DNA of 64,000 nt from Takakia lepidozioides (Eukaryota > Plantae > Bryophyta). The translations under genes and the position numbers were made by a program. Below, piece by piece: positions 15,521 through 63,409 of the stretch (positions are counted from its first letter, which is position 1; each line of letters opens with the position of its first letter). The stretch covers positions 53,010,001-53,074,000 of the forward strand of contig CM060734.1 of NCBI GenBank assembly GCA_030704615.1, written 5' to 3'. The notes below the pieces were generated by a model. It saw nothing but the letters and a program-made list of their open reading frames with translations. It did no database searches and had not been told where the DNA came from.

Positions 15521-15633
15521 TGCAAGCAATCAATCCTTTAGCTGGACCTAAACCTCTTCCTCTCTTCCCAACTCTATAGCAAGATCACGCAGACGCACAC
15601 ATAAGTTGTTGGTAAGCCGCTCCAAAGACTTAG

Positions 15634-23340: not shown

Positions 23341-23359
23341 CCAATGTTGAGGGAGGCCC

Positions 23360-32850: not shown

Positions 32851-32877
32851 CTGGCAGTGGTATCTGCAGGTTTGAGG

Positions 32878-33021
32878 TGCATGTTGTGTGGGTCTGCTAA
32901 AGGGGCAGCCACCATGCTGGTATGTGATCGGTGCTCTAGAGGTTGGCATATGGGATGCTTGACTCCACCTCTTGAGATGGTTCCGGATGGGGATTGGTTA
33001 TGTCCACATTGCATTGGATAG
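32878..33021 (+). CDS. C-terminal PHD finger of the integrase
   Basis: CMLC...MLVCDRCSRGWHMGCLTPPLEMVPDGDWLCPHC is a canonical C4HC3 PHD. Confidence 0.92.
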   Translation, partial: CMLCGSAKGAATMLVCDRCSRGWHMGCLTPPLEMVPDGDWLCPHCIG

Positions 33022-36834: not shown

Positions 36835-38289
36835 TCATTGTGCAAACAGACTTGACATGTTCTCTACTTCAATTCTAGATTTCCGGATGTCATCATGGAC
36901 CTGTTTCCCTTTTCCGAGAGCTCTGAGGCTGGCGCATGCATTGAGAATACAAGTGGATGTGACCATGTCGGGCGTCACCCCATCCTGTTGCATTTTCTCA
37001 TAGATCTTGAAAGCTTCCATAGCATCCCCATGCTGAGCATATCCTGCTACCAACGAACTCCACGAGACCACATCTCGTTTAGCCATACTGGCGAACACTT
37101 CACTTGACGCGCCTTCTTCATGCTGCCGCATTTTGCATACATGTCGATAAGGCTATTCTCCAAATTGATATAGGACGCAATCCCAACTTTCATGGTGTCA
37201 GCATGCACCTCTTTGCCCTTTTCCAGGGCTCCTAGGCTGGAACACGCATTGAGAACACAAACAAACGTGACTGTGTTGGCTCTCACCCCTGCTTGTTGCA
37301 TTTGCCTGTACATCTGGAAAGCCTCCCTCCCAAACCCATGACGAGCATATCTTGCTATCAATGCACTTCAGGTGACCACATCTCGTGTAGCCATATTATC
37401 AAACACTTGCTGGGCATCTTTCATGCTTTGCGCATTTTGCATACATGTCAACAAGTGTCAAGAGTATTCTCCAAATTTATATATGACATAATTCCAGCTT
37501 TGATGATGTCAGCATGGACCTACTGGCCCTTCTACAAATCTCCTAAGCTAGCATATGCATTGAGAACACAAATGAATGTGACCCTGTTTGGCATCATCCC
37601 TTCCTGTTGCATTTGCTCCTAGATCTTCAAAGCTTCCCTACCACACCCATGCTGAGCATATCCACGGCACTCCATGAAACCATATCTCGCTTATATTATC
37701 AAACACTTGTTGCGCATCCTTCATGACCCCACATTTGGCATACATGTCCACAAGGCTATTCTCCAGGTTTAAATATGACTTTATTCCATGTCTCCTAGGC
37801 TGGCACATGTTTTGAGACCGCAGATGAAGGTGATCCTGTCAGGGGTCACCCTTTCTCATTGCATTTGCTCATAGATTTTGAAGGCATCCTAGGCATGCTC
37901 ATGCTTGGCATAGCCTGCCATCATCCCCCAGTCCATGTAAGCAAATCTCGTTGTCAAACACTTGACGTGCATCCACCAAGCTACCGCAGTTGACATACAT
38001 TGACAAGGGTATTGAGTAGATATACTATTGGCTTGCATCCACTTTGGATAATGTAGAAATGCACCTGCTTCCCTTGTGCTAGGTTTTTCATGTTCATACA
38101 TTCCTGCAAGAGAACGACATATGTATTCCAGTACGCTCGAATGCCTTGTTGGCTTAAGATGTGGTGCACATCTTTCAGTCGTCCTGCCTTACATAGAATC
38201 CTAACATACTGACAAGTGCCAGAGAGGGAACTACCCCTGCCGCCAGTCTCTTGTCCCAAAAACATCTCCGCCTCATTCAACCCTGCCAT
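36835..38289 (-). pseudogene. PPR pseudogene A, copy 2
   Basis: Same fragments as 7439-8790 plus the 3' end. Confidence 0.9.
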
Positions 38290-38799
38290 TCTGCATGACT
38301 CAAAACTCTAAATCAAACCTTCAACCTCAAGTGCAACTTGTATTATACACCTAGATGCTTTTAAGAAATATGTACTGATGAGGGCCTTTGCGCATAATTA
38401 CAGTTATAAAACTAGCCAGACATGGTCATTGAGCATAATCTGTACCAAGCACATCTACTCACGTTAAACCTGAATCGTCATCTAAACAATACCCAATGTA
38501 TTCTTGGACGGGAACGCCATGGTGTGCATTGACATAACAACCATGGGATGTCATTGCCAGCTGAAGCTAACCAACCCAAGAGAAAGAAAAGATAGAATCT
38601 AAGACATGAAGATGCACACTTGCTCCTGCATACAAAGAACAAAACATTAGGATTACATGAAATGGCATACCAGTGGGCATTGATAATGTTGTTGTAAACG
38701 AAACATTAGGGGGGTGTGCCCTCACTCTTTGCTCTCTGAAACCAGTGTGTTCTGCAGCACTTTCCACATCCCCAAACACAAGACTACGCTTCGTTCAGC

Positions 38800-39770
38800 C
38801 ATATCATCAAACACTTGACGTGCCCCTTTCATGTGCCCACATTTGGCATACATGTTAACAAGGGTATTTTCCAGAGTTATGAAAGACGCAATTCCAGATT
38901 TCATGAGTCATCATGGACCTCTTTGCCCTTTTCCAGGTCGTAGGCTGGCACACGCATTGACAACCGAAATGAATGTGACCTTGTTGGGCATCACTGCTTC
39001 CCGTATCATTTGCTCATACAATTGGAGAGCCTCCTTACCCCATCCATGTTGAGCATATCCTGAGATTCACATTCCATGAGACCACATCTCGTTCATCCAT
39101 AGTGTCAAACACACTACGTGCATTTCTTATGCTCCCACATTTAACATACATGGCAACAAGGGCAGTGCCAAGAATGACATCTGACACAATTCCAGCCGTG
39201 ACGATGTTAGCATGGAGTCTGGATCTCCTTGCCCTTATCCAGCTCTCCTAAACTGGCACACTCCTTGACAACAGAAATGAACGTAACCTTGTTGGGTGTC
39301 ATCCCTTCCTGCATCATTTGCTGATAGACCTCAGAGGCCTCCCTAACACATCCATATTTCACATATCCTGCCATCATCGTAGTCCATGTAAACACATCAC
39401 GTTTAGGGATCGTGTCAAACAAATGGCATGCATCCACCACGCTTCCACACGTCACATACATGTTGACAAGGGTGTTGAGTACAAATAAGTTCGGCGTGTA
39501 TTTACTTTGAATAATGTGGGTGTGCACCTGCTTTCCCCTTTCGAGGTCTCTAGTTTTGATGCACTCCTGCAAGGTACAATGAGTCTGGCCAAACGTCTTG
39601 TTTGTTCAGAATGTACAGCGCCTCTTTCAGCTCTCCTGCCTTACATAGTGTCCTCACATCCTCAAAAGTGCCAGAAAAGTTGTTGACAATCCGCTCCCTT
39701 GCTCCTTTCCAAAGGAGTGATCTGGCGGAAGTTCTTGACTCCAACAATTGCATCTGATTCAATCCTGCCA
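38800..39770 (-). pseudogene. PPR pseudogene B, copy 2
   Basis: Matches 9300-10290. Confidence 0.9.
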
Positions 39771-42281
39771 TGTCTGATTCAAGAAACCTTAGTATAGAGT
39801 TTTCCAACCAGACTCCCAAAATATATCTCAAATCTCCTCAGGGCCTCAAGACAGATTTCTTATCAAGACAGGCTTGATGTTGCTTGATTCCAACAATTGC
39901 ATCTGATTCAACCCTGCAATCCTGCCGGATTCAAAACTCTTACTATAAGCTTTTCAAGTCAGACTCCCAAAATATATCTCAAATCTCCTCAGAACCTCAA
40001 AACTCTCATCAAGACAGGCCACATATTAGCAGGTCTACAAAACTAGTCCTGCAGATACATCGTTATTTTGCTGATGATTCAAGGTATCCAACTCAAACAG
40101 ATAGAATTGTTACTCTTTATTCTCAATGTATGAGATGTCCTAAACGTCCTCAATCAAGACATCCTCACCTTATCAAACCTGATATTGCACCACTGTGAAA
40201 GATCTGAGAAGTACTCTTGCCATAGCTGTTCTGTGATGGCTTGACCTGTGTAAGACTACAAGAAGATGAGAATTTTGCCTCACTCAAACTTCAAGAACAT
40301 GCAGTCAGCTCCACATAAGAAGACACATCTGTGGAGGTGGTATTCAAACTCAGTTATCACTCCCATCATCGGAGTCAGTTACACAATCTCCACATCAAAA
40401 CATGCATTGGCTCAACATGCCATGAGCATAGGATGTGCCCAGCTTGTACCATCTAAGAAGTCAAGATATAGCATGGACAACTCCTCGGACACCCTCGTAT
40501 TGGGAGAGAGGCCAGTAGTACTCTCCTCTCCCTCTTTTTTGGAATAATAAACAGAAGGGGACGGAGGCCCCAAAACGAATTCAAAAGCGCAAGGAGAAAT
40601 AAACCTTGCCAAACAACAGGGGCCGGAGCACTGCCCTGTAGCCAGCCCCCTGAAAACAGAAAAAGATAGAGAAAAGAGGGACAAACCCAAAGCCCCATAG
40701 CCCCAAGCCAACCACTGGGCCAGCAAGAGCGGAGAACCAAGGGATTCACGCACTCTCTCCTCTCTTTTATGTCATTGCCCTGGGAGGAGCATTTATTTCT
40801 CAAGACCACCTTCACAAGGTGCTAAATCAGTTGCCTGATTTTCCAGTATTTTGTTTGTTCTCCACCGTGGTTCCTTGCTATCCTTCTCTACCCTTTCACA
40901 AGCATGATGTGACTGGCAGTGCCATCACCAACACAGTTCCCATGTGTGTCAGACTGGGACTGGAGAACGAGTGTTAGAATCAACACAATATTTTTGGCAT
41001 GATGTTTACCCACCCTCACACAATTACTCAATTCCCTGTGGTATCCACAACAAGGTCGGGGGGTTACTATCCCAGAGGAACCATGTGTTCAAGGGTTTCT
41101 CATTGCCAATTCGTAGGAACTGCCCATGAGAACATCCTTCTCTGCCATTATCCATCCTTCATGGAGACAGGCATTGCGTTGACGGAATCACAACACTGCT
41201 GTCACATCCGGGGCACTAGCCCTATAATCTTACTCTGACGAAGAACCTGATGGGCTGTCCTCCCCCTAAAGATGGTACGTCACACGGCCTAAGGGTCCAC
41301 GGAATCTATGGCAACGACAACCTCTCTCTCTCTGTCTCTCCCCTCGACATACCAGAAGATTCCAGGAGATACAAGAGAAGCTTATGGAAGGAGGACAACG
41401 TTGTTGTTGACGATTACACTCACGTTTCTCTACATTACCATTTATGCCCACAAAGTGAATCCCTAGCTGGGTCATGGAGAATTTGGAGCCTGGAGCACTC
41501 CGCGCAAAAGGCTACCAGAATGTACCTTTCTTGAGTCTCCCTGCAGGCTGAGGAGGCTTCACAACCACTTGCAAGGGTCTCGGGCACGGCATTGCCAAGG
41601 TGGACGCCGGGTTCAGCTCCACGGCCCGGTCCATTAATCTGCTGCACGATGTGAGGCCTCCCGCCCTTTCACCGAAGAAGACAGGGCCTTCAATAAGTCT
41701 TCCGATTGCGCGAACAGAAGTTGCCCCGAGTACGATGTCAAAAAGAAAAAGATGAAGAGGAAACGAGTAGCAACAAAACCGCAACACAAAAGAGATCGAA
41801 GGGGACTGCTACAGATTTCAAGACATCGTGGCACTGGGGAACCTTCAAATCATGAAATGAAATCAACCCCAATTCTTTGGATGGGCAAAATGCCAAGAGT
41901 AGTGAATGAGTTGGCCAGCGTTGAGCCCTCGTCCTCAGGTGAGATTGAGTTTGCAGGTGATCGTTTGCCCATGTGTGACGGCCAGAAAGATTTCGCAACT
42001 GTCGTTGATTCCCCCCTGCATTTCTTGGTTTGGATGGCCCTTCCTCTTTCGCTTTGTGTAACATGTGCGGTTTTCCTCGCTTTCTTTTTGTTTGTTTTGG
42101 CATCTTCAGCCTGGCAGCCCTGGAAGTGCATGGTTGCATCTCAAAAGCACGAGTTGGTGAGATGAATGATCAAGGTCAGAGGGTTAGAAAGGAGCCAGGT
42201 CGTTGCAAAAGCAGGAGTGGTGAGAAGAATGATGAAGGTCAGAGGGGTTAGAGCCAGGTCATTGCTCCATTGAGATTTGCA

Positions 42282-42781
42282 NNNNNNNNNNNNNNNNNNN
42301 NNNNNNNNNNNNNNNNNNNNNNNNNNNNNNNNNNNNNNNNNNNNNNNNNNNNNNNNNNNNNNNNNNNNNNNNNNNNNNNNNNNNNNNNNNNNNNNNNNNN
42401 NNNNNNNNNNNNNNNNNNNNNNNNNNNNNNNNNNNNNNNNNNNNNNNNNNNNNNNNNNNNNNNNNNNNNNNNNNNNNNNNNNNNNNNNNNNNNNNNNNNN
42501 NNNNNNNNNNNNNNNNNNNNNNNNNNNNNNNNNNNNNNNNNNNNNNNNNNNNNNNNNNNNNNNNNNNNNNNNNNNNNNNNNNNNNNNNNNNNNNNNNNNN
42601 NNNNNNNNNNNNNNNNNNNNNNNNNNNNNNNNNNNNNNNNNNNNNNNNNNNNNNNNNNNNNNNNNNNNNNNNNNNNNNNNNNNNNNNNNNNNNNNNNNNN
42701 NNNNNNNNNNNNNNNNNNNNNNNNNNNNNNNNNNNNNNNNNNNNNNNNNNNNNNNNNNNNNNNNNNNNNNNNNNNNNNNNN
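42282..42781. other. Assembly gap (500 N)
   Basis: Run of N. Confidence 1.
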
Positions 42782-44106: not shown

Positions 44107-45261
44107 CTATGGATGATTAGTAACGCAATAAACCTCATTACCATAACCAGTACTTGCACGTGTCGCAGCTTGTGGAGGAGGCACAACGGGAACGCCACCG
44201 CTGGGATATCTTGGAAAGCCACCAATGGGAAATCCTAGACCGCCGCCGCCGGGAAACAAACCTACGCCACTGGGATGTCCTGGAAAGCCACCATTGGGAA
44301 ATCCCGTACCGCCGCCGCCGGGGAACAAATCGGGATAACCTCCGAAATGTCCAAAACTTCCAAACGGAGGAGGATGGCCTAGGAATGGATGTTTAGCGTC
44401 GAAGTACTTCATATTACCATACCCGCTTGCCGATGCCATAGCTTCTAGAGGAGGCACACCGGGAAATCCTGGAAAACCACCATTGGGATATCCTCCAAAG
44501 CCACCAATGGGATGTCCTAGAAAGCCACCACTGGGATATCCTGGGAAGCCACCACTGGGAAATCCTGGACTGCCGCCGCCGGGAAACAAACTGGGATCAC
44601 CTCCGAAATGTCCAATACTTCCTCCTCCGACACTGGGATGTCCTGGAAAGCCACCAATGGGATGTCCTGGAAAGCCAACACTCGGATATCCTGGAAAGCC
44701 ACCACTGGGAAATCCTCGACTACCGCCGCCAGGAAACAAACCGGGATCACCTCCGAAATGACCAATACTTCCTCCCCCGCCACTGGGATATCCTGGGAAG
44801 CCACCACTGGGATATCCTGGAAGGCCACCACTGGGATATCCTGGGAAGCCACCACTGGGATATCCTGGAAGGCCATCACTGGGAAATCCTGGACCGAGGC
44901 CGCCGATATTGGGATAATCTCCGACATGTCCAAATCTTCCATGACTTTTTTCACTACTATTGAGGTTATTGCCAATACCTCCATCAGGAATTCCTTCATC
45001 GCTTGGATTTCTACTCTGAGAACCATCACCATCGGGCCCTAGAGGACTTCCTAGGGCTCCAAGATCATGACCAACAGAAGGCCCAAAACTACTCAAAGGA
45101 CTAGGATCACTAGCTTTGTTGTTGAGGTCCAAATCACCTAGCACTACACCCTCTGAATCATGCTTGTTCCCAACACCTTCACTTGCAGCTTGCACACTCC
45201 CTATTAAGAAAATCAGAAACAAGAGGGAATTCACCATACAAATTTGTTGCACAGTCTTCAT
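44107..45261 (-). CDS. Gly/Pro-rich gene copy 3 (384 aa)
   Basis: Intact ORF with a different number of octapeptide repeats. Confidence 0.85.
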   Translation of the reverse strand: MKTVQQICMVNSLLFLIFLIGSVQAASEGVGNKHDSEGVVLGDLDLNNKASDPSPLSSFGPSVGHDLGALGSPLGPDGDGSQSRNPSDEGIPDGGIGNNLNSSEKSHGRFGHVGDYPNIGGLGPGFPSDGLPGYPSGGFPGYPSGGLPGYPSGGFPGYPSGGGGSIGHFGGDPGLFPGGGSRGFPSGGFPGYPSVGFPGHPIGGFPGHPSVGGGSIGHFGGDPSLFPGGGSPGFPSGGFPGYPSGGFLGHPIGGFGGYPNGGFPGFPGVPPLEAMASASGYGNMKYFDAKHPFLGHPPPFGSFGHFGGYPDLFPGGGGTGFPNGGFPGHPSGVGLFPGGGGLGFPIGGFPRYPSGGVPVVPPPQAATRASTGYGNEVYCVTNHP

Positions 45262-45568
45262 TGCAAGCAATCAATCCTTTAGCTGGACCTAAACCTCTTC
45301 CTCTCTTCCCAACTCTATAGCAAGATCACGCAGACGCACACACAAGTTGTTGGTAAGCCGCTCCAAAGACTTAGTTTATATAGTGACTGAAGGCCAAGGC
45401 CTTAAGCAGCATACTGATAAACATAGCTGCTGTTGGGCACTATAGTAGTGTCCACAGATTTTTCTTTTCTTAAAAAAAGAAAAAGAAAAGTGTCTTCGGA
45501 CTCAGTTTTCTTGTTTTTTTCTTTTCTTTTCTTTTCTTTTCTTTTCTCCAAATTTAGATATGATGTCC

Positions 45569-47102
45569 TGTAGTGTGAAAAGAAGGGGCGTGAATCCCCT
45601 TCTGTATAATTCTAATTGTGCTCCCCTCCATTGGTTGCGGAGCAAGAGGAAAGAAGCGTTCTTTCTAATCTGTCCAACTGTCGTCACTTGGCTGTGGGTT
45701 TCCCTCAGCTCCTCCGTGATCAGAGTTCAAGCAATCCTCATCCACGCCGCAGCGGAAGGGAAGACATGGATGGGGAGTCAATTTGTTGTTCACTCTTGGT
45801 TCTACCTTTTACACAACATCCCCTATCAGCAGGTACAGCACCAGCTATGCTGGTGCGATGTATTCAGTGATGCAAATCAGCCCAATGGCAGCGGTAAACA
45901 CGATCCTTTATGCGAAGCCCACTTGAGCAGTGACAGGTCGGAAATCCCCTTTTTGTAGTGGTGACACAGATTTAGGAGGAGGCAGCTCAGATCTTCATGG
46001 TCTGCAGGGGCACTGGTTTCTTTCAGGTTTTCTTCATCTCATCTCCCCAAATTGGCCAAACCCCCCCCCAACAGCCCCTTAGAATTTGCAGCTCTCTCCT
46101 TGCCCAAATCCCATTTTTCACTCTCTCTCTCTTTCTTTTCCCTTTTTGTCTGTTTCACTATCTGGTTTATGTCCCCAGGTTCCCCACTATTTCACAGCAG
46201 CAGATCTGTCATGTAATGTGAATGCACACGCTGCTAGGCATCCAGTGCGGCCAGCCTTGAAGTCATCCTCGGTCTCTCAAGACACAACCATCCCATCCAT
46301 CAGTCTCTCTCTCTTTCTCTCTCTCTCTTGTCCCTTTTTTCAATGACCCATCGCTCAAACAGCTCTCATCTCTTTTGTCAGACTTCAACCCAAATACCCC
46401 AACATCCCTCTTTTCCCTTCAACTGTGGAACGCAGTTGTTCAGATCCTGATCCCATAGTGAAATCACCTTATCCTTTGACATGTTTTTTTTTTTGCAACT
46501 CCAGCTAACTATCATTGATCTCTCCAAACAAACAAGCCAGATCTACATTGGTTCCAGGTTATCACTACACACGACAGCATGGTGTCCAGGTTTATGACAC
46601 TGAATCAAAATGCAAGAATGAAGACAACAGTGACCATTCTGAATTCAGTGACGAACAGGCTCTCTCTTTCTCTCTCTCTTCACTTATTTCTCTCACTGTC
46701 ATCACAACATCAGGTGCATCCATCCTTTCCACGTTCTGGTCTGAAGTCCAGAGTCTCCATTCCCATTTCAAAAACTTTTTCTTGTCACATGTCTCTACCT
46801 TTTGTCTTCTGCCAAGATGGCAGTCCTAAATCTACCAAAGCAATTTCTAAGTCCTAGCAAAAAGAAGCCTCTGTTCATCGACTTATCTGTTTTTATCCAC
46901 TAGTGAAGCGGCGGGTCTGCCTGTCAAGGTGGCACCTTGCCATCGCCCGTCAGCAGCCACTTCAACCCTTTCTCTTTGTCTTGATTCCAGACCTTATGAC
47001 GCCATGATGGCTCCCCTTCTTCACTTGGACCATCCTGTGGCCTGACAACCAGATTGCACTATGCAATTCTTCCTCTCGAATTGGCCTGGTCCTATAACAA
47101 GG
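45569..47102 (-). mobile_element. Truncated LTR of the same family as 5259-7438
   Basis: Starts TGTAGTGTGAA and is near-identical to 5259-~6779, then joins unrelated sequence. Confidence 0.92.
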
Positions 47103-50100
47103 GGTAAAATGTTCTTTGTGTGGGACGGGAATCACCGACTTCTCGCCTGGTGGGAGTACATCAAGCAGAACCATGCCAAGCACATTGGTTGGCATTACAT
47201 GGTGGAGTGTGTCATCCTGAAGGTGAAGGCGGCAGACTCCTCCCTGCTCAAGAATGCCATGGCGGACCTCAACTCGTAAGATACTCATACCCTCCCTAGC
47301 ACGTTCGAAATGCGGTGCCGCATTTCGGGTTCCATTCTGGTTTGTTTCCGTGCTTCCGTGTACTGAACTGGAGAGTGTGCCTTGCAGGGTCACTGAGAAT
47401 GCGTACGTGCATACCCACATGGCACATATGCTGTACAGGGTGAGGAAAACTGGTCTCACTGATCCGCAGATGTTTGCGGAAATGCTGGAGCCCGAGCTCA
47501 TTCAGAAAGCCGTTGCAAAAACAGACCGGACATGGTATCGTCTCACTATGGATGGAATGGTGGAGGTGATATACGAAGTAAGTCGTCCTCCAATTTCCCT
47601 CTGCTCATCCTTCCCCAATTTCCAGTAATCTTTCCACATGAATCGAATGTAACGCTTCTGCATGTTTTTGTTGGCAGTCAAACATCAAGCTGGATTTGGC
47701 CCATGCCAAACGCTTCTTCATGGAAAGTGAGGGGCAGGTCAAAACGTTGCAGTCATTGACTGAGCACTTGAAGGAAGCCGGTATCAAGTCCAGAACCAAA
47801 TACAAGTCAAAGCTTGTGAAGCTGGTGGCAATTGCAGATCCGGCACTTGGAAAGGACTTCATCCCCGAGATTGCAAAACACTATTCTCGGGCCATGCAGC
47901 CGACCATGCAATTGGAGAAACTGCATCACCTCTCAACGGCATGTGTGGAGGCGAAAGAGAAGGTGAGGTTTCAATGCACTGAAGTTCCTTCCTAGCAATA
48001 GCCACTCTCTTCCAGCTCCTGACATTGGATCGGAAATGGCAGACACGGTGGCTGTCGATCTGGAATGCATCCGAGAGCATAAGGACAATGTGGTCTTTTC
48101 CACTGGAAGTTTCCGACCCTGCAGTGGATGTGTGGCTCAACCGTATGACTTGGTGGTTCCAGGTAATTCAAGGTATTTCCCCAGATTTGCTTTTCTGACA
48201 TGAATTCCCTGAACTGCTACGTGACAATGCATTTGGGAATCGCAGGTAATGTCGAATGCGAAGGAGCAAGTCGTAATGCACACAAATTCGTTCGGCTTGT
48301 ACGTCAAATGGGATGGAACACAGACATTGGAAGACTACGTGACACGTTTCAGATGTGCGTACAAGGACAACCTTTTCGCCAGAGAGCTACAGACAGCAAG
48401 AAGGAGCGTGGAGTTTACACATCAGGAGGGAGCGGGGAAAGCTGCAATGCGAATTGTTTACAGGTGAAGCACAGCTGCCCTTGTATGCGAAGCCTGGTTA
48501 CGAGGTTTGTCTCGGAAATACGGCACCGCATTCGCATTTTATGTTTTCGGTGGCACTCTGCGAGTAGGTTGGTCTCAACTTTTGCTCACGCATGCTGACT
48601 GCCTTGCAGGTATATGAAATACGTGCTCCTTCAGACAGGGGCCCTGGCTCAAGAGCCCCCGTTCTTCATGGCTTGGACCGTGGCGGGCCCAAGCTGTGTC
48701 TACACACCCGAGATGCAGAAACAATGGCATCCCGCGCATCTCGTTGGATGCCCGTGGTACCTGGACATGTCTGGCGGTATTGTTGACGAGTCTGAGAAAG
48801 ATCTGCACGCCTTGGCAGAAGAGAAGAGAAAGGAAAGACGTGTCCCTGCTGGGCCAAAGTCGGCAAAGGAATCTGCTGCTCTGGAAGAATCCAGAAAGGC
48901 AGCTGAGATGGCACAAAAGACGGTGGATGCAGCTGTGCAGGCCCAACAGAAGGGGTCGAAGAAGAGGACTCGCCAGCAAGGAGCAGCTGTTGTGACACCC
49001 ACCAAAACGAAGAAGCAGAAACAACCTGTTCAGGAAGAGGGTGAGGAAGAGGACTCCGATGGAGACTTTGCAACCAGCCCACCCCCCCAAACGCAAGCTG
49101 CCTCCCCTGTGCCCACCGTTGTCACGAGAGGCACGAGAACTAGCTCGGCAAAGAAGGCACTCTTCAACCCCCAGGGGGGCACCCTTTCGAGCCGGTGGAA
49201 ATGAAGAGGCCAAAAGTGGCTCCCGAAACAGTGGTCCAGTGTGTAAATGAGAGTTTCTTGGCGGCTTTGGATGGACGGGCAGCCAAGTTGGCATACATGA
49301 AGACCATGGAGGGTCTGAAGGGCAGAGCACTGAAGAAGGCGACTGCCGAAGAGCCTTCCGACACCCCAGGATTTCAGAATATGGTCTCGTTCTTTGAGAG
49401 GGTGTGTGCAGACAAGGATTGTAGGAGGGGCGGAAATGCCACCGAGTGGTCTTGCGATATGATCATCTTAGATATTCCGGACGGAGAGCCTGTGGAAGGA
49501 CTGCAAGCTTTGCCATCTTGGAACAGGTACTCGGAGGACTTTTGGAAGAAAGGATTCGAGCTTGCCCGCATGGTGTTGGACGACAGAGGCTGTGTGGTTG
49601 TCCTGGCGAGCAGAGGAAAAAACACTCAGACAGGAATTGCGAAGTGGACCCGCAAGAGCGCCGTCCCGATTCTGAAAAAGAAGTGGACGTGCATCAACAC
49701 ACTGGGCCTTTGGTCGGAAGGGAAGAAGGTGATTACGACACTGGCACTCGTCCATTCATTTGCTTGGGTGTTTTCAAATGCGGTGCCGCATTCGGTTTCT
49801 AATCGTTTTCCCCCTGTGTATGCAGACGAAGCAGTTCGATGCATACTGCTTTATGAAGGAGAACTCCACCTTTGCTTTCCGGAAGGAGGGAGGAAAGGGT
49901 GACCCGAACTGCGGCCCACTCGATTACGACGTTCTGTTCAACAACGTTCCCAAGGAACTTCTCCCTCATAGCCTCACTTCAACGGAACCCCTGCGGTACT
50001 CACGGACTCGGAGCCCTGCCTTCATTCAGACAATTATGGAAACATGCACAGACGTGGAGGGCACAGTGCTCGACCTCATCTGTGGGACATGTATGCAGAA

Positions 50101-50764
50101 TCTTGATCTATGCTGTTCTGCAAATTCTCGTTAGGATGTAGTTCGCAACATCTGAAGCGCCATGTGGTAATGTGTGGATGGCATTGTAACAGGTGCCTCA
50201 ATGTGGGCTGGGCGGTTTTCCGACCGGCACCTCTTTGCCTACGAGGAGGATTCATCCGTGTGGGGATCCCATCTGGAAGGGCTGCAACGGAATGTTAAGG
50301 CTCCCGACAGAGCGGAAGTCTCCTCGGATTCGTCGGAGTCCGAGGAAGACACAGTGGACATTGATGCGGAGGAGAACCCGGAATACGAGTGAGTGCAAAC
50401 ATTGTAAGTTTGCAAAGCCTTCTGGGTCATTTATGTCAAACGAATTTCCCGACTGTGGTTCTCATTAGTCTCGTTGATGATTGTCATGTGCAGGATTGCA
50501 GGGTCCGGGTCGAAACATGTAGGGCCTACACTTCCTGCCAGGAAGAATGTCCCGTTCTTTGCGAGGGCCGACTTCATGACGAGCCCGGTGAGGGACTACT
50601 CCCTTCCTAGTTATGCAGCTAAACTCGCAAATACAGCGATTAGAAGAAGTGAGAATCCCAGTAAAGTAGAGCAGCTCAGACAGGTAGACGAGTACGAAAG
50701 TACATATGTGATTCAGCGGATGAGAGCGACGCAGACAGGGAGGAAGACGACCCAACGGAGGTGA
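47103..50764 (+). CDS. Spliced gene (5'-truncated, one frameshift near 49170): ParB-like N-terminal motif + beta-class N6A/N4C DNA methyltransferase-like domain
   Basis: Exons <47103-47275, 47388-47577, 47678-47962, 48016-48162, 48246-48463, 48610-49728, 49826-50090, 50193-50388, 50494-50764; all GT-AG with matching phases. Motifs FVWDGNHRL, CDMIILDIPDG and RSPAFIQTIMETCTDVEGTVLDLICGT. Confidence 0.75.
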
Positions 50765-51047
50765 GATGGACAGCTCCGCAAGGGGAAGATGGGATTTTCG
50801 AAAGCCTGGCCAACGAGCAGTCCGCTGGAGATGAGAAAGGCACTGAGGGGGTGGAGGCGGAGCAAGACAGTCTAGAACAGGATGAGGATTCGGATGATTT
50901 TCAAGATTAATAGAATTTTAATGAAGTCTCTGTAAATGTAAATTCTCTTTCAGAGTATATAAAGGAAATTCTGCCAGACATTCGTGACCCCTCTCCAGTG
51001 TGCATTCCAGCCACACAATCGCTCAAACCACGACGCTCCCAAAATCA

Positions 51048-51779
51048 GAAATGGGGCACCGCATTTCCAAAATTTTGGCAACTCTAAGAACCTCTTTTGG
51101 AAATGCGGCACTGCATTTCAAAAACAGGGGAGGGACTAAATTTTCCATTTCAATGTTGGCATAGTAAAAAGTAATCGGCCGATTGGAAATGCGGTGCCGC
51201 ATTTCCAAAATTTCCTTTGTCCACACGCCAGTTTTGGCCTCTCCCGCTCATTGCATGGATGCCACCACGCTTACAGAGGTCGAACAAGGAGGTCGAACAA
51301 GGAGGTCGAGATGGCGGAATTGAAAATGCGGTGCCGCATTTCCATATTGGGGATGGTCGTTGTTCGAACTGCAGGCCCATCAGCAAAAATTGGCACCGCA
51401 TTCCATTGTAAAAAAAGTCGATGACGGACATGGAAATGCGGCGCCGCATTTCCAGAACGGACATCGCAATTTGTCCATTTGCAGACCCTCTCACGGAAAT
51501 GCGGTAACGCATTCCATCGCGCTGGTCGGAAATGTCACACTTTTCGAAGTGTTGGACGGAAATGCGGCACCGCATTCCCTTGTCCAAAAGAAGTTTCCAT
51601 TGCCAAGCTGGAAATGCGTCGCCGCATTTGCAATGCCAACCTCGTTGTCTGTCCAATTTATAGACCCGTGTTGGTATTTTGTGTACCTGGACGGAAATGA
51701 TGCACCGCATTTCCTTGTCCCACATGGAAATGCGGTGCCGCATTTCGATGCCGACATGGAAATGCGGTGCCGCATTTCC
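51048..51779. repeat. Array of ~12 palindromic 22-bp motifs with unique, variable spacers
   Basis: GGAAATGCGG(T/C)(G/A)CCGCATTTCC-like copies at ~51048, 51099, 51185, 51322, 51386, 51432, 51495, 51558, 51610, 51693, 51726, 51758. Confidence 0.9.
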
Positions 51780-52033
51780 ATGTCCGACATGGCGTTACTC
51801 TGGTATATTCTTGACACATGACTCACATACCGGTTACTCTGCTATATTCATCCGGACAGACACATTGTAGAAATGAGACATCAAATTGTAAACAATGGGC
51901 CAATTCCGACAGTTATTCAACAGAATGAAACAATCACACAGAAGTGAGGTACGATGGGTTTATTGATCGGACACGATGTCTCACATTTACCAACTGCAGA
52001 CAGAACTAAGCCCTTCCTCCTTCTACATGGGCT

Positions 52034-52612
52034 TCACCAAGTCGACGGAACTTCGATACCCCTCAAAACAAGCTCATCACTGCTGCGGCACCTCGAGGTA
52101 AACTGCAATTCGGTCGTTCTGCTGCCCTTGCTGGAGCCGACGACAATGTCATGTCCATCAATGATACCACCATCATACATTGACAAGGTCACTGTGGGCC
52201 TCATGTGCCCGTGCGATTCGTCTTCGCAACTCAGCCGAATGTCTCCATACACTGGAAGAGCGGAGTGATCTGCACGTATATAGTTTTCCCCGGTGCCGTC
52301 CTCCCTGGTCCACTGACAGCAGTTCCACCGCCAAAGCGAGGCCGTGCGTGATCTGTCCGGCATCCCTTTCCAGCTTGGTATATCGAGGTCAACAATTTTC
52401 AGGACCCACGGACCGCATTGACCCTCGCCCTCACCTCGCTCAAAGCGGTAATAGCCCTCCAGATACTCCATTGCGCGCAAAGACTCTTGCTTGATTCCAG
52501 CAGCGTCTGTGAAAACAGAGAGCCAGACAATGATGTCTCCTGATTCTGGTTTGAACATAGCATAATCGTGGCCATGATAAGGGCAGGCGGCTGGATTTCG
52601 GCGGCACGGCAT
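52034..52612 (-). CDS. Unknown ~190-aa family member B (192 aa)
   Basis: ATG at 52612 (MPCRRNP...); homologous to members A and C. Confidence 0.8.
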   Translation of the reverse strand: MPCRRNPAACPYHGHDYAMFKPESGDIIVWLSVFTDAAGIKQESLRAMEYLEGYYRFERGEGEGQCGPWVLKIVDLDIPSWKGMPDRSRTASLWRWNCCQWTREDGTGENYIRADHSALPVYGDIRLSCEDESHGHMRPTVTLSMYDGGIIDGHDIVVGSSKGSRTTELQFTSRCRSSDELVLRGIEVPSTW

Positions 52613-53143
52613 CCTTGAAAAAGAGTAGGGGAGTACGCTCAATGACAGCAGCTCCCGGATGGAGGAGGAGCAGCGCGGTGGCTGGAAAAAGTTCAAGCTA
52701 ACGCTGCAATTCCTCACAAACACTCCAGGGCACATTTAAAATTCCCCCCTACAGGATCCTGGACCGATGAAGATTGGCTGCTTCATGAATGTAGCCGTTT
52801 CAGTTTCCTACCCTGCCATGCAAACTATGGGCACTCACTGCCAGGTGGGCCGATAGCCACTGGACACGACGAAGTCCATCCCCTCTTCGATGTAAATGCG
52901 GCGCCGAATTTCCATCCGGGGGGATGGACTTCGGTGGCAGATCTCAAACTATAACTTCTTGATGAGAAAGATGTATGGGTTCATCCACCTCCGTCGGTGG
53001 GTACGTGGGACCCAGATGCTCCATTATTGGAGGCCGGACTGCTCTTCCGCTTCGCATCATTTCCAAAATCTAAGGGCTTCGTAGCTGTCCGCAAGGTCAT
53101 TGTCATCTGCATCCAAGTCGTCCTCAGGTCCTCCTTTGCAAGG

Positions 53144-53707
53144 ATGCCGTGCTTCCGGAACCGGGACGACTGCCCATTTGGAGGCATCGATTATGCAATG
53201 TATTCGGCCACATCGGGAGACATTGTTATCTGGTACACAGATTACACAGAAGATACTGGTTCGATTGTGGAAACATTGGTGGCTTTTGAGTATATCGTAG
53301 GCCACTACGCCTTCGAGCGGGGTGACGATCTTGGTCTGAGGAGTCCGTGGCTCCTGCGCATCCTCGATTCCGATTTTCCCAGCTACGACGGTCACCCATG
53401 CAGAAGAAGGCGCACTGCTATGCTGTTGCGGTGGAACTGCTGCCACTGGACGTGGGTGGACTCCATCGGAGAGACCTATTCTCCTCAAGGAGTGCGCTCC
53501 TCTTCTCCATTGTATGGGGACATTCGCATTGGTGTGGACGACGAAAACGTGAAGATTTCCATATTCGATGGTGGTATGATTGAAGGGCAGGACATTGTGG
53601 TGAACATCACTAGGGGCGGTACAACGGCTGCAATTGACTTTACATGGAGGAGCCCCATGACTCATGAGCTAGTTCTGAGAGCAGTCGAAGTCCCATTGAC
53701 AACGTGA
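53144..53707 (+). CDS. Unknown ~190-aa family member C (187 aa)
   Basis: ATG at 53144 (MPCFRNR...); divergently oriented paralogue of B. Confidence 0.8.
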   Translation: MPCFRNRDDCPFGGIDYAMYSATSGDIVIWYTDYTEDTGSIVETLVAFEYIVGHYAFERGDDLGLRSPWLLRILDSDFPSYDGHPCRRRRTAMLLRWNCCHWTWVDSIGETYSPQGVRSSSPLYGDIRIGVDDENVKISIFDGGMIEGQDIVVNITRGGTTAAIDFTWRSPMTHELVLRAVEVPLTT

Positions 53708-54088
53708 CTTGTATTCAGTAGGCACAGGGCTCAAGATTTGATGGCACAATCAGCACAGTAGACGTGCTTCAAATGCAATTCATGTGGATCAATAAAAACC
53801 TCATTGTGCCCTCTTTTTATTCTATTTTGTGTCCATCGTTCCCAGAATGCGTCATTGCTCATTTTGTTTGGGATTAGGAGTGTGGGTGGATTTTGCAAGT
53901 GGCTGGTAGGCTGAAATGGGCCCCCATTGTACAGAGCAGTACCACCCTACCATTCGCGAAACATTGCCTTTCAATATATAATTCTAAATAACATTGCCGA
54001 ACCTCCTTCATCGGGAGGTCCTTCTCCCCCTATGACCGTGGCACCCTAAACCCTATTCCCGCGGACACTCATTTCCGGAAAATAGTGC

Positions 54089-54170
54089 TGCTCATGTTTT
54101 TTTCCACACTTACGACTCTGCTCATGGCTCATGCCGCTCATGGCTCATGGCTCATGAAATAGCAGCCCCC
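54089..54170. repeat. GCTCATG short repeats and sharp island boundary (possible transposon terminus)
   Basis: About six GCTCATG copies followed by AATAGCAGCCCCC abutting the middle of a Gly/Pro-rich gene. Confidence 0.45.
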
Positions 54171-54982
54171 GAAGATTTGGACATGTCGGAGATTATCCCA
54201 ATATCGGCGGCCTCGGTCCAGGATTTCCCAGTGATGGCCTTCCAGGATATCCCAGTGGTGGCTTCCCAGGATATCCCAGTGGCGGGGGAGGAAGTATTGG
54301 TCATTTCGGAGGTGATCCCGATTTGTTTCCCGGCGGCGGTAGTTGAGGATTTCCCAGTGGTGGCTTTCCAGGATATCCAAGTGTTGGCTTTCCAGGACAT
54401 CCCATTGGTGGCTTTCCAGGATATCCCAGTGGTGACTTTCCAGGACATCCCAGTGTCGGAGGAGGAAGTATTGGACATTTCGGAGGTGATCCCAATTTGT
54501 TTCCCGGCGGCGGCAGTCCAGGATTTCCCAGTGGTGGCTTCCCAGGATATCCCAGTGGTGGCTTTCTAGGACATCCCATTGGTGGCTTTGGAGGATATCC
54601 CAGTGGTGGTTTTCCAGGATTTCCCGGTGTGCCTCCTCTAGAAGCTATGGCATCGGCAAGCGGGTATGGTAATATGAAGTACTTCGACGCTCAACATCCA
54701 TTCCTAGGTCATCCTCCTCCGTTTGGAAGTTTTGGACATTTCGGAGGTTATCCCGATTTGTTCCCCGGCGGCGGCGGCGGTACGGGATTTCCCAATGGTG
54801 GCTTTCCAGGACATCCCAGTGGCGTAGGTTTGTTTCCCGGTGGCGGCGGTCTAGGATTTCCCATTGGTGGCTTTCCAAGATATCCCAGCGGTGGCGTTCC
54901 CGTTGTGCCTCCTCCACAAGCTGCGACATGTGCAAGTACTGGTTATGGTAATGAGGTTTATTGCGTTACTAATCATCCATAG
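54171..54982 (+). pseudogene. Gly/Pro-rich gene copy 4 (5'-truncated)
   Basis: Begins mid-gene at GAAGATTTGGACATG; lacks the signal peptide. Confidence 0.85.
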
Positions 54983-56153: not shown

Positions 56154-57615
56154 TCATTGTGCAAACAGACTTGACCTGTTCTCTACTGCAATTCTAGATT
56201 TCCGGATGTCATCATGGACCTGTTTCCCTTTTCCCAGAGCTCTGAGGCTGGCGCATGCATTGAGAATACAAGTGAATGTGACCCTGTCGGGCGTCACCCC
56301 ATCCTGTTGCATTTTCTCATAGATCTTGAAAGCTTCCATAGCATCCCCATGCTGAGCATATCCTGCTACCAACGAACTCCACGAGACCACATCTCGTTTA
56401 GCCATACTGGCGAACACTTCACTTGACGCGCCTTCTTCATGCTGCCGCATTTTGCATACATGTCAATAAGGCTATTCTCCAAATTGATATAGGACGCAAT
56501 CCCAACTTTCATGGTGTCAGCATGCACCTCTTTGCTCTTTTCCAGGGCTCCTAGGCTGGAACACGCATTGAGAACACAAACAAACGTGACTGTGTTGGCT
56601 CTCACCCCTGCTTGTTGCATTTGCCTGTACATCTGGAAAGCCTCCCTCCCAAACCCATGACGAGCATATCTTGCTATCAATGCACTTCAGGTGACCACAT
56701 CTCGTGTAGCCATATTATCAAACACTTGCTGGGCATCTTTCATGCTTTGCGCATTTTGCATACATGTCAACAAGTGTCAAGAGTATTCTCCAAATTTATA
56801 TATGACATAATTCCAGCTTTGATGATGTCAGCATGGACCTACTGGCCCTTCTACAAATCTCCTAAGCTAGCATATGCATTGAGAACACAATTGAATGTGA
56901 CCCTGTTTGGCATCATCCCTTCCTGTTGCATTTGCTCCTAGATCTTCAAAGCTTCCCTACCACACCCATGCTGAGCATATCCACGGCACTCCATGAAACC
57001 ATATCTCGCTTATAGCCATATTATCAAACACTTGTTGCGCATCCTTCATGACCCCACATTTGGCATACATGTCCACAAGGCTATTCTCCAGGTTTAAATA
57101 TGACTTTATTCCATGTCTCCTAGGCTGGCACATGCTTTGAGACCGCAGATGAAGGTGATCATGTCAGGGGTCACCCTTTCTCATTGCATTTGCTCATAGA
57201 TTTTGAAGGCATCCTAGGCATGCTCATGCTTGGCATAGCCTGCCATCATCCCCCAGTCCATGTAAGCAAATCTCATTGTCAAACACTTGACGTGCATCCA
57301 CCAAGCTACCGCAGTTGACATACATGTTGACAAGGGTATTGAGTAGATATACTATTGGCTTGCATCCACTTTGGATAATGTAGAAATGCACCTGCTTCCC
57401 TTGTGCTAGGTTTTCATGTTCATACATTCTTGCAAGAGAACGACATATGTATTCCAGTACGCTCGAATGCCTTGTTGGCTTAAAATGTGCAGCACATCTT
57501 TCAGTCGTCCTGCCTTACATAGAATCCTAACATACTGACAAGTGCCAGAGAGGGAACTACCCCTGCCGCCAGTCTCTTGTCCCAAAAACATCTCCGCCTC
57601 ATTCAACCCTGCCAT
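56154..57615 (-). pseudogene. PPR pseudogene A, copy 3
   Basis: Matches 36835-38289. Confidence 0.9.
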
Positions 57616-58129
57616 TCTGCATGACTCAAAACTCTAAATCAAACCTTCAACCTCAAGTGCAACTTGTATTATACACCTAGATGCTTTTAAGAAATATGTA
57701 CTGATGAGGGCCTTTGCGCATAATTACAGTTATAAAACTAGCCAGACATGGTCATTGAGCATAATCTGTACCAAGCACATCTACTCACGTTAAACCTGAA
57801 TCGTCATCTAAACAATACCCAATGTATTCTTGGACGGGAACGCCATGGTGTGCATTGACATAACAACCATGGGATGTCATTGCCAGCTGAAGCTAACCAA
57901 CCCAAGAGAAAGAAAAGATAGAATCTATTACATGAAGATGCACACTTGCTCCTGCATACAAAAGAACAAAACATTAGGATTACATGAAATGGCATACCAG
58001 TGGGCATTGATAATGTTGTTGTAAACGACAACATTAGGGGGTGTGCCCTCACTCTTTGCTCTCTGAAACCAGTGTTCTGCAGCACTTTCCACATCCCCAA
58101 ACACAAGACTACGCTTCGTTCAGCCATAT

Positions 58130-58820
58130 CATCAAACACTTGACGTGCCCCTTTCATGTGCCCACATTTGGCATACATGTTAACAAGGGTATTTTCCAGA
58201 GTTATGAAAGACGCAATTCCAGTTTTCATGAGTCAGCATGGACCTCTTTGCCCTTTTCCAGGTCTCGTAGGCTGGCACACGCATTGACAACCAAAATGAA
58301 TGTGACCTTGTTGGGCATCACTGCTTCCCGTATCATTTGCTCATACAATTGGAGAGCCTCCTTACCCCATCCATGTTGAGCATATCCTGAGATCATCACA
58401 TTCCATGAGACCACATCTCGTTCATCCATAGTGTCAAACACACTACGTGCATTTCTTATGCTCCCACATTTAACATACATGGCAACAAGGGCAGTGCCAA
58501 CAATTCCAGCCGTGACGATGTTAGCATGGAGTCTGGATCTCCTTGCCCTTATCCAGCTCTCCTAAACTGGCACACTCCTTGACAACAGAAATGAACGTAA
58601 CCTTGTTGGGTGTCATCCCTTCCTGCATCATTTGCTGATAGACCTCAAAGGCCTCCCTAACACATCCATATTTCACATATCCTGCCATCATCGTAGTCCA
58701 TGTAAACACATCACGTTTAGGGATCGTGTCAAACAAATGGCATGCATCCACCACGCTTCCACACGTCACATACATGTTGACAAGGGTGTTGAGTACAAAT
58801 AAGTTCGGCGTGTATTTACA
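58130..58820 (-). pseudogene. PPR pseudogene B, copy 3 (internal deletion)
   Basis: Matches 9300-10000; deletion near 58820. Confidence 0.85.
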
Positions 58821-61800
58821 AATAAGTTCTTGACTCCAACAATTGCATCTGATTCAATCCTGCCATCCTGTCTGATTCAAGAACCTTAGTATAGAGTTTT
58901 CCAACCAGACTCCCAAAATATATCTCAAATCTCCTCAGGGCCTCAAGACAGATTTCTTATCAAGACAGGCTTGATGCTGCTTGATTCCAACAATTGCATC
59001 TGATTCAACCCTGCAATCCTGTCGGATTCAAAACTCTTACTATAAGCTTTTCAAGTCAGACTCCCAAAATATATCTCAAATCTCCTCAGAACCTCAAAAC
59101 TCTCATCAAGACAGGCCACATATTAGCAGGTCTACAAAACTAGTTCTGCAGATACATCGTTATTTTGCTGATGATTCAAGGTATCCAACTCAAACAGATA
59201 GAATTGTTACTCTTTATTCTCAATGTATGAGATGTCCTAAACGTCCTCAATCAAGACATCCTCACCTTATCAAACCTGATATTGCACCACTGTGAAAGAT
59301 CTGAGAAGTACTCTTGCCAGAGCTGTTCTGTGATGGGTGTAAGACTACAAGAACATGAGAATTTTGCCTCACTCAAACTTCAAGAACATGCAGTCAGCTC
59401 CACATAAGAAGACACATCTGTGAGGAGGTGGTATTCAAACTCAGTTATCACTCCCATCATCGGAGTCAGTTACACAATCTCCACATCAAAACATGCATTG
59501 GCTCAACATGCCATGAGCATAGGATGTGCCCAGCTTGTACCATCTAAGAAGTCAAGATATAGCATGGACAACTCCTCGGACACCCTCGTATTGGGAGAGA
59601 GGCCAGTACTCTCCTCTCCCTCTTTTTTGGAATAATAAACAGAAGGGGACAGAGGCCCCAAAACGAATTCAAAAGCGCAAGGAGAAATAAACCTTGCCAA
59701 ACAACAGGGGCCGGAGCACTGCCCTATAGTCAGCCCCCTGAAAACAGAAAAAGATAGAGAAAAGAGGGACAAAGCCAAAGCCCCATAGCCCCAAGCCAAC
59801 CACTGGGCCAGCAAGAGCGGAGAACCAAGGGATTCACGCACTCTCTCCTCTCTTTTATGTCATTGCCCTGGGAGGAGCATTTATTTCTCAAGACCACCTT
59901 CACAAGGTGCTAATCAGTTGCCTGATTTTCCAGTATTTTGTTGTGTTCTCCACCGTGGTTCCTTGCTATCCTTCTCTACCCTTTCACAAGCATGATGTGA
60001 CTGGCAGTGCCATCACCAACACAGTTCCCATGTGTGTCAGACTGGGACTGGAGAACGAGTGTTAGAATCAACACAATATTTTTTGGCATGATGTTTACCC
60101 ACCCTCACACAATTACTCAATTCCCTGTGGTATCCACAACAAGGTCGAGGGGGTTACTATCCCAAAGGAACCATGTGTTCAAGGGTTTCTCATTGCCAAT
60201 ATTCGTAGGAACTGCTCATGAGAACATCCTTCTCCGCCATTATCCATCCTTCATGGAGACAGGCATTGCGTTGACGGAATCACAACACTGCTGTCACATC
60301 CGGGGCACTAGCCCTATAATCTTACTCTGACGAAGAACCTGATGGGCTGTCCTCCCCCTAAAGATGGTACGTCACACGGCCTAAGGGTCCACGGAATCTA
60401 TGGCAACGACTTCATTTCATGATTTGAAGGTTCCCCAGTGCCACGATGGCTTGAAATCTGTAGCAGTCCCCTTCGATCTCTTTCGTGTTGCGGTTTTGTT
60501 GCTACTCGTTTCCTCTTCATCTTTTCTTTTCGACAGCGTACTCGGGGCAACTTCTGTTCGCGCAATCGGAAGACTTATCGAAGGCCCTTTCTTCTTGGGT
60601 GAAAGGGCGGGAGGCCTCACATCGTGCAGCAGATTAATGGACCGGGCCGTGGAGTTGAACCCGACGTCCACCTTGGCAACGCCGTGCCCGAGACCCTTGC
60701 AAGTGGTTGTGAAGCCTCCTCAGCCTGCAGGGAGACTCAAGAAAGGTACATTCCGGTAGCCTCTACTGTCCAGGTTATCTATGCATTAGGCGTTCCTTGT
60801 GTCAGGTTGCTGACCCTGTTTGAGTGACTATTTAGGCCTCACTTGCTTTCCTGACCACACTGAAGGAAGAGGGAGTGGGAGAGACTTTACATCTGACACA
60901 GATATCTTTGGACTGGAAATCAGTCTGGCTTGGCATAAGTGTTGGCAATGCAAAATTAAATTTGCATAGGAAGCATAGAAGATTGGCAAATCATCTTCAA
61001 AATTTTCGTGGAAGAAACCACATCGGAAAGAACCCATTTTGCCATTGTACAATGTCCAAGAACAAATGTGACTGCAGTAGCTATTATGGGAAAATGTATT
61101 TGAGGTTTGCTCCCCTCATTAGATGGCTGCCTTCCCATCACTTATCCCAAAGACAAAAATCCCCCCTTCTCAATCACATTCCCGGTCCGTATTCCCCCCT
61201 AGTACAAAGCAGTGTAGGGATGGCAGACAAATGCCAGTTGAACATCTATTACAGGGACTTGAATCAGCCTAGAGCAACCAGCAGCCCCTGTCCCTCTGAT
61301 CTATCCTTCAAGACTAGATGCCCCTGGCAGGGCCCGCAGTCAAATCCCCACCCCCTAAGGCCAGCCCCTGTGCCTATATTATTCCCCTCAGGGGGCCTTG
61401 TGATATATGTATTATTCTAGTGACGACTAAAGGTGGGATACTAGTTTTAGTGTAGGGCTGGAATAGGATGCCATAGTGACACATCATGGTCACCATGTCA
61501 TCATCGCCACATCATTGTCGCCACTTTTTTGGCTAGAAAACAACAAAGAAAACAAAAAAGGATTTTGAAAATCTATTTTACAAATCTGCTCTAATATCGC
61601 TTGCTTTCTAGTGATCGAGACCAATGACCATCGTCAACAATCATACAACAGTGACTGTAGGGAAAGAAAACTCAGTCCATGACCATTTTTGATTCATTCA
61701 AATGAAATGGCTGACATACAAGATCAAAAAAACTTTGAATGTTTCAACTAGCTACACTTCTGTGCAGACTAGGCAATCTTGCAGCTTGAAGGTCTGATAT

Positions 61801-63116: not shown

Positions 63117-63409
63117 TGCAAGCAATCAATCCTTTAGCTGGACCTAAACCTCTTCCTCTCTTCCCAACTCTATAGCAAGATCACGCAGACGCACACACAA
63201 GTTGTTGGTAAGCCGCTCCAAAGACTTAGTTTATATAGTGATTGAAGGCCAAGGCCTTGAGCAGCATACTGATAAACATAGCTGCTGTTGGGCACTATAG
63301 TAGTGTCCATAGATTTTTCTTTTCTTAAAAAAAGAAAAAAGAAAAGTGTCTTCGGACTCAGTTTTCTTGTTTTTCTCTTTTCTTTTCTTTTCTTTTCTCC
63401 AAATTTAGA

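Follow-up and report, generated by a model that had tools for sequence, protein, structure and literature searches.

A truncated, frame-broken plant gene with a methyltransferase-fold domain, a likely ParB-type N-terminus and intronic palindromes in Takakia lepidozioides

The DNA analysed here, called the window, is a 64,000-nucleotide stretch of contig CM060734.1 from the bryophyte Takakia lepidozioides (assembly GCA_030704615.1, positions 53,010,001 to 53,074,000), and its subject is an intron-bearing gene that begins at 47103. A preliminary description had presented 47103-50764 as an intact nine-exon gene. Judged from the sequence, the spliced gene is real but the intact gene model is wrong, and the present copy most likely makes no working protein. 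The explanation that is favoured, by a modest degree of belief, is that of a 5'-truncated, frameshifted plant copy of a gene that was probably carried by a giant DNA transposon as an accessory gene, with an intact product that would bind the palindromes of this element. The broken copy is a pointer to a family and not a working enzyme.

The gene combines a likely ParB-type N-terminal part with a methyltransferase-fold C-terminal domain. The motifs FVWDGNHRL, DMIILDIPDG and RSPAFIQTIMETCTDVEGTVLDLICGT/CASMWAGRFSDRHLFAYE were found at the positions claimed earlier, and the eight claimed GT-AG introns are present. Their T content is 28-36%, compared with 17-27% in the exons. Splice junctions were also sought in relatives, which are named below as metagenome loci (L numbers) and protein matches (P numbers). 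Introns 1, 6 and 7 share protein position and phase with the plant loci L002 and L005. Every one of the loci L001-L005 is decayed and contains stops or frame breaks, a repeat-like behaviour that speaks for the transposon reading; since their matches are identical, L001 and L002 are apparently a single locus. The parts of the gene, with the junction on its left, are as follows.

47102-47103, no strand: left rearrangement junction, where host-cluster DNA (45578-47102) meets the truncated gene.
47103-47275, plus strand: exon 1, 5'-truncated, second half of the putative ParB-like domain with WDGNHR, 36% identical to L002 9426-9584.
47276-47387, plus strand: intron 1, phase 2, with a perfect-armed palindrome at 47306-47327; L002 has an intron at this position and in this phase.
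47388-47577, plus strand: exon 2, open frame, its start resembling the L002 sequence past the corresponding intron.
47578-47677, plus strand: intron 2, GT-AG.
47678-47962, plus strand: exon 3, 35% identical to L005 228-395 (E 4e-5 in a search within the loci).
47963-48042, plus strand: intron 3, GT-AG, likely end; a nearer in-frame acceptor would give the alternative end 48015.
48043-48162, plus strand: exon 4, collinear with L005.
48163-48245, plus strand: intron 4, GT-AG.
48246-48463, plus strand: exon 5, open frame with GT-AG ends, no relative found.
48464-48609, plus strand: intron 5, with a degenerate palindrome at 48515-48534.
48610-49728, plus strand: exon 6, with a CPWYLD motif, a basic/acidic linker, a frame break and, after it, the catalytic half of the methyltransferase fold.
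49471-49482, plus strand: motif IV, DIPD, within exon 6.
49729-49825, plus strand: intron 6, with a degenerate palindrome at 49775-49794; the acceptor is placed identically in L002.
49826-50090, plus strand: exon 7, motif X and motif I region (VLDLICGT at 50066-50089).
50091-50192, plus strand: intron 7, donor at the equivalent place in L002 and L005.
50193-50388, plus strand: exon 8, end of the S-adenosylmethionine (SAM)-binding half and an acidic stretch.
50389-50493, plus strand: intron 8, GT-AG.
50494-50910, plus strand: last exon; the frame described earlier stops at 50764, and the predicted acidic tail runs to 50910.

The longer form of intron 3 is preferred. L005 is collinear and free of gaps only if this intron is 80 nucleotides long and ends at 48042, and a branch-like CTGAC lies 24 nucleotides upstream of that end. 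Leaving intron 8 unspliced would lead to an in-frame stop at 50390-50392. The identity of exon 7 is 41% to P0020, 33% to P0025, and 30% to L001/L002.

The earlier claim of perfectly compatible phases over about 950 codons did not survive. The spliced model is 2858 nucleotides long, which is not a multiple of 3, and it runs into a stop at codon 534. Exon 6 contains a change of frame around 49165-49180, where runs of C and G lie, and the overlapping open reading frames (ORFs) 48599-49204 and 49144-49902 mark the change. A ninth intron at 49041-49174, which would give a 907-residue frame, was rejected: the segment is exon-like (13% T, 60% GC), and P0005, P0014 and P0017 each match both sides of it in one unbroken ORF. 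The site at 49165-49180 is therefore read as a frame break. A second break is likely near 50660 and leads into the acidic tail, an 81-codon open frame (33% D+E) that ends at 50910, and GC content drops from about 0.5 to 0.22 at 50900. The true 3' end is thus probably at 50910 and not at 50764. Since none of the exons contains an in-frame stop, the damage is either recent or partly an assembly error. The present copy retains 855-944 codons, to which the lost N-terminus has to be added.

The 5' truncation is evident from the flanking DNA. Position 47103 is not a gene start, because the adjoining 45578-47102 is a 99.2% identical duplicate of 5258-6779, and the latter copy continues with unrelated sequence. 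The in-frame stretch 47046-47102 was considered as part of the ParB-like domain and ruled out, being duplicated flank DNA. In L002 the stretch GK-F-VWDGNHRL recurs, preceded by 68 further residues of the same ORF, and at least 68 residues of the domain present in L002 are missing before 47103. On the other side, the block of about 7 kb to which the gene belongs ends at a second junction.

54170-54171, no strand: right junction, where the block abuts the central part of an inverted glycine-rich gene copy.

The C-terminal domain has the fold of a beta-class DNA amino-methyltransferase, as supported by structure prediction, and the earlier assignment is upheld at this point. Motif IV precedes motif I in the exons, as in permuted beta-class enzymes. 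None of the 10 exon pieces scored meaningfully in Pfam on its own, and the motif IV exon profile found no match in the PDB by sequence. By ESM features, the own exon lies near PF01555 clusters (0.90). A HMMER search with 49201-49728 as query against 1.84 billion representatives gave 19 relatives at E<=0.001; they are 83-376 residues long and apparently exon fragments, and the 18 listed are under 50% identity, the best at 24-40%. P0025, a member of the 90% cluster of match P0015, passes PF01555 (29.8 bits against a cut-off of 26.7, E 7e-7) and extends into a near-canonical motif I, VVDPFLGCG. It matches the DpnA-type M1.HpyAVI in the PDB (E 6e-4) as well as 106 phage records, of which the 20 listed are DNA methylases aligned over the motif I region only. 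The structural model of P0025, built from an alignment that included the present exon, is confident for residues 1-129 only. With this model, CcrM (E 2.5e-5) and M.BceJIV ranked first in a structure search. Among the matches listed by VIA-align, MTA1 reached Z 9.2 (root-mean-square deviation (rmsd) 2.8, 123 aligned residues) and M.MboIIA Z 9.1 (rmsd 4.8, 135 aligned); MTA1, M.MboIIA and M.BceJIV span Z 8.9-9.2, and two tRNA methyltransferases are tied at 8.6. Full-length annotated relatives were not found, which is a weak negative, and none of 95 candidate stretches in metagenomes was a near-identical relative. L006, a single weak match among 140 in the genome collection (E 7e-6 over 49 residues), was unsupported by the family profile and was set aside.

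Motif IV departs from the catalytic consensus throughout the family. The DIPD of the present copy does not match (D/N/S)PP(Y/F/W), a departure that the preliminary description recognised without seeing that it is family-wide. In the 19 relatives, D is invariant (19/19), P stands at position 3 in 18/19 and at position 2 in 0/19. Exact DIPD occurs in 3/19, and F occupies position 4 (DLPF) in 5/19, so that an aromatic residue is absent there in 14/19 and in the present copy. All 24 rows of the alignment share a downstream W and G. This pattern indicates that the D-x-P-x departure from DPPY/SPPY is an old family trait and not decay. The consensus of the SAM-binding motif I is DPFxGxG. The corresponding sequence is DLICGTC in the present copy, DFIVGTC in L002, and DPFLGCG in P0025. 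The Cys of this motif was considered as a lesion of the present copy and rejected, as L002 shows this GTC too, likewise spanning the intron. Catalysis is doubtful in the DIPD group, because replacing S and Y of SPPY was reported to abolish N4CMT activity (PMC8885841). In this subgroup methyl transfer is probably weak or lost, and the fold would then serve as a module that binds DNA or SAM; activity may persist in the DLPF subgroup.

The N-terminus is likely of the ParB type, to judge by its motif. DGxHR after a hydrophobic strand is the motif of ParB/Sulfiredoxin proteins, and VWDGNHRL occurs both in the present copy and in L002. By ESM features, the 56 residues of the present copy are close to DUF6551 (0.91), which we take to be ParB-like, and to a ParB_N cluster (0.88) in which 32% of the members carry the family. 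The earlier ParB claim is therefore backed by motif and ESM match, but not confirmed by profile or fold. A model of the ParB exon, built from two sequences, had a predicted local distance difference test (pLDDT) score of 36 and a best Z of 2.2; its listed matches included no ParB fold, but the model is too poor to support or exclude one. Translated searches (tblastn) of phages and plasmids with the ParB exons gave only E>=4, and none of the 88 candidates in viral contigs carried the ParB exon. The linkage of the two halves is seen in plant relatives. In L002 the WDGNHR exon (9216-9587) lies about 550 nucleotides before the methyltransferase exon (from about 10132), with the middle exons lacking, and in L005 exons 3 and 4 precede the methyltransferase exon. 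Downstream in L002, a PHI-1/EXORDIUM gene at 14165-15523 (PF04674, E 3e-92) marks the locus as plant DNA and is followed at 18100-19300 by a tandem array of about 72-bp units.

A 20-bp palindrome, GAAATGCGG-NN-CCGCATTTC, was missed by the preliminary description. At up to 4 mismatches it has 34 copies in the window (shuffle mean 0.34, maximum 3 in 50), and at up to 2 mismatches it has 13 copies, all inside 47103-54170 (maximum 0 in 50 shuffles); the motif was derived from the same data used for counting. The block 47103-54170 holds 15 of the 34 copies: introns 1, 5 and 6 have one each, eleven lie at 51048-51778, and one is at 52893. All 3 in-gene copies are intronic, for which the chance under random placement is about 0.006. 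The other 19 make up a related family within tandem repeats of 96 bp at 17454-20750, which surround a paralogue of two ORFs, A and B, that lie in the block. Across 17350-20840 the 96-bp repeats form two arrays in opposite orientation (11.4 and 6.0 copies) with a long imperfect related palindrome in each unit, and these arrays belong to the inverted duplication 16620-18179 / 20023-21584. The exact palindrome had no match in viral contigs. The features concerned are listed below.

51048-51778, no strand: palindrome array with 11 copies (up to 4 mismatches) and a 12th with 5 mismatches at 51385.
52034-52612, minus strand: ORF A, about 192 residues from Met, 49% identical to ORF B and 36% to ORF 18960.
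52870-52933, no strand: palindrome lying between ORFs A and B, which diverge from it, and related to each of the two palindrome families in the window.
53144-53707, plus strand: ORF B, 187 residues, paralogue of ORF A.
18960-19700, plus strand: third paralogue, with 36-49% identity within the trio.

The fold z-score of the array is -11.35 against 20 shuffles. ORF A, ORF B and ORF 18960 constitute a Cys/Trp-rich family, each member adjoining CGGCGCCG-centred palindromes, and the family had no match of note in Pfam, PHROGs or NCBIfam. The CpG observed/expected ratio is 0.71 in the gene and 0.78 in ORFs A/B, compared with 0.36-0.51 in a pentatricopeptide repeat (PPR) gene copy and two retroelements. 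The higher values fit less methylation-driven decay, but age or origin could explain them too.

In the proposed mechanism, a dimer of the intact protein would recognise GAAATGCGG-NN-CCGCATTTC, in the way that parS is recognised by ParB, both within the introns of its gene and in the array downstream. Binding would occur via the ParB-like half and the middle region, and the bound protein would hold the methyltransferase-fold domain on the DNA of its own element. The chromatin or methylation state of the element would then be changed, probably against host silencing. Dimerisation, binding, any role of cytidine triphosphate, and any silencing effect are steps that we infer. A more specific version, which is speculative and rather doubtful, is a land-plant ParB-parS-like transposon clamp that would load at its own palindromes, while the rebuilt D-x-P-x-G...P-x-W-N methyltransferase fold would shield or mark the element. 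The palindrome provides a precise candidate binding site inside the introns of the gene and makes self-targeting testable.

Several observations weigh against an accessory gene that binds its own transposon. Neither junction of the ~7-kb block has terminal inverted repeats (TIRs) or a target-site duplication. Transposase families matched none of the 57 ORFs of the island and the neighbouring window, scanned together with five further control ORFs, and none of the 103 ORFs in L002-L005. The ParB exons had no match in Pfam, PHROGs, NCBIfam or PDB searches, which leaves the ParB fold unconfirmed, and no DNA-binding helix-turn-helix was identified. The palindromes at 17454-20750 stand beside an ORF A/B paralogue without a methyltransferase copy, so a different protein could be the binder. 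Close to the relatives, the loci L001-L005 show no similar palindrome array. The earlier statement that the gene rides on a mobile island is likely but unproven: the block has rearrangement junctions, but neither terminal inverted repeats nor a target-site duplication, and transposase families gave no match.

A different possibility is that intact family members are active DNA amino-methyltransferases with a D-x-P-x-G...P-x-W-N site, which would put N4-methylcytosine or N6-methyladenine on their own element. The invariant D and near-invariant P of motif IV (19/19 and 18/19), the invariant downstream W and G, DLPF in 5/19 relatives, and the near-canonical motif I of P0025 all fit such an enzyme, and unusual strand-4 motifs are described in other permuted clades (PMC4738411). 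However, the fourth residue is not aromatic here or in 14/19 relatives, P is absent from position 2 in all relatives, both the present copy and L002 have an altered motif I, and loss of S/Y abolishes N4CMT activity (PMC8885841). This possibility is doubtful.

It is unlikely that the living plant has an intact gene and that truncation and frame breaks are assembly artefacts of a highly duplicated region. The exons are free of in-frame stops, both frame breaks fall at homopolymer runs, and there are a 500-N gap and numerous duplicates of 95-99% identity in the window, where 24 overlapping pairwise alignments contain 207 indels versus 785 substitutions. Yet only 46 of the 207 indels lie in runs of >=3, both junctions are sharp and join different host-cluster sequences, and the related loci are broken too. 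Artefact may well account for the frame breaks and is less likely for the truncation. Quite improbable is a pseudogene of a domesticated host gene, in the manner of Marchantia DN4MT1 or bdelloid N4CMT, with the palindromes as unrelated footprints of miniature elements or as sites for the proteins of ORFs A/B. The intron positions kept in another plant, the missing transposase in the window and in L002-L005, and the related palindromes that flank the ORF A/B paralogue at 17454-20750 would suit it, but the known domesticated enzymes are described as keeping SPPY, the relatives show great diversity, every locus seen is decayed, and an annotated full-length protein was not found (a weak negative).

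The horizontal origin proposed earlier holds in part. An ultimate prokaryotic origin is likely, but a recent transfer is not favoured, since intron positions shared with plant loci point to old residence in plants. The assignment to land plants is based on the PPR genes and long terminal repeat (LTR) elements of the window and from the PHI-1 gene beside the relative L002. The window is plant DNA, with PPR genes, reverse-transcriptase/RNase H ORFs and a duplicated glycine-rich gene, and is rich in duplicates of 95-99% identity, both direct and inverted.

The glycine/proline-rich protein gene occurs five times in both orientations, with some copies broken (14390-15529, 34493-35536, 44107-45270, 54171-54982 and 61887-63125); it has GGFPGYPS repeats and a hydrophobic N-terminus, and the one copy scanned had no Pfam match. 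A PPR gene region occurs three times at 97-99% identity (7400-11800, 36900-41300 and 56200-60400), along with further PPR fragments, and the PPR cluster appears to have been rearranged recently and repeatedly, or over-assembled. Coding regions of the LTR-retrotransposon type at 787-4819 and 25704-32900 match reverse transcriptase and RNase H in several overlapping frames. An eIF3_p135 (CLU-type) Pfam match above cut-off at 22730-23005 on the minus strand, with 23082-23579 on the plus strand, is probably a host gene fragment. The 500-base assembly gap (N) is at about 42281-42780.

Among known systems, the closest in domain pairing is Ectocarpus Sola1-1_Ec32, whose accessory gene encodes a ParB-like and N4C/N6A methyltransferase protein of 1104 residues, and whose authors propose that the protein binds and modifies its own transposon (PMC12477816). 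The same paper cites Iyer et al. 2011 for green algal examples. The preliminary description, which called such fusions typical of phages and bacterial mobile elements, overlooked this publication of the pairing from algal transposons. The Sola1-1 protein has a similar length to that expected here, and the likeness is in the described domain pairing, of which the ParB-like half is putative in the present gene. The Sola1-1 gene is transcribed, and the 21.5-kb element around it is complete, having a transposase as well as TIRs of 282 bp, whereas the present copy is broken and has neither in view. The kind had been noted in algae without a tested function or target, as far as the accessible text goes, and the present locus probably extends it to a land plant and shows an altered catalytic motif conserved across a diverse family. 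No report of a ParB-methyltransferase gene in land plants was found in the literature covered, which was incomplete.

In the Plavaka elements of the red alga Bostrychia, PAG2 combines PF01555 with SET, and PAG3 combines a ParB-like domain with a 2-oxoglutarate (2OG) oxygenase (10.1101/2025.02.11.637652). As described for PAG3, a ParB-like gene adjoins inverted-repeat arrays that are proposed as binding sites, with an amino-methyltransferase on the same elements, and an adjoining array is present here as well (11 copies, plus 3 intronic ones). In contrast, ParB and methyltransferase are in separate genes in Plavaka, while here a putative ParB part and the methyltransferase domain share one gene and palindromes are also intronic. 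The PF01555 enzymes CcrM, M.BceJIV, M1.HpyAVI and M.MboIIA have the fold and the order of motif IV before I in common with the present gene, which differs in D-x-P-x in place of (D/S)PP(Y/F/W), the altered motif I, the introns, and the long N-terminal part. Marchantia MpDN4MT1a/b and bdelloid N4CMT are likewise eukaryotic beta-class enzymes of prokaryotic type, and N4CMT has introns (10.1101/2021.02.12.428880, PMC8885841). They are working host enzymes with SPPY (TSPPY in Marchantia), similar by description, and a count of the term ParB gave zero for both papers.

Eukaryotic methyltransferase clades derived from phage ParB-terminase loci have been described, with none in the available text named for land plants with the present architecture (PMC4738411, which treats unusual strand-4 motifs of other eukaryotic permuted methyltransferase clades in its section 8). 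A phage ParB is reported to activate a DNA-modifying partner without needing nucleoside triphosphate-binding residues (PMC13229309), and the ParB part therefore need not be a sliding clamp. VANC21 binds motifs of its own element in introns and tandem repeats (PMC5735166). The likeness to the anti-silencing VANC proteins of VANDAL elements is an analogy of working with no shared domain known, in which the VANC action is experimental and the action proposed here is conditional. If the clamp version were true, the land-plant system would be a prokaryote-derived counterpart of VANC.

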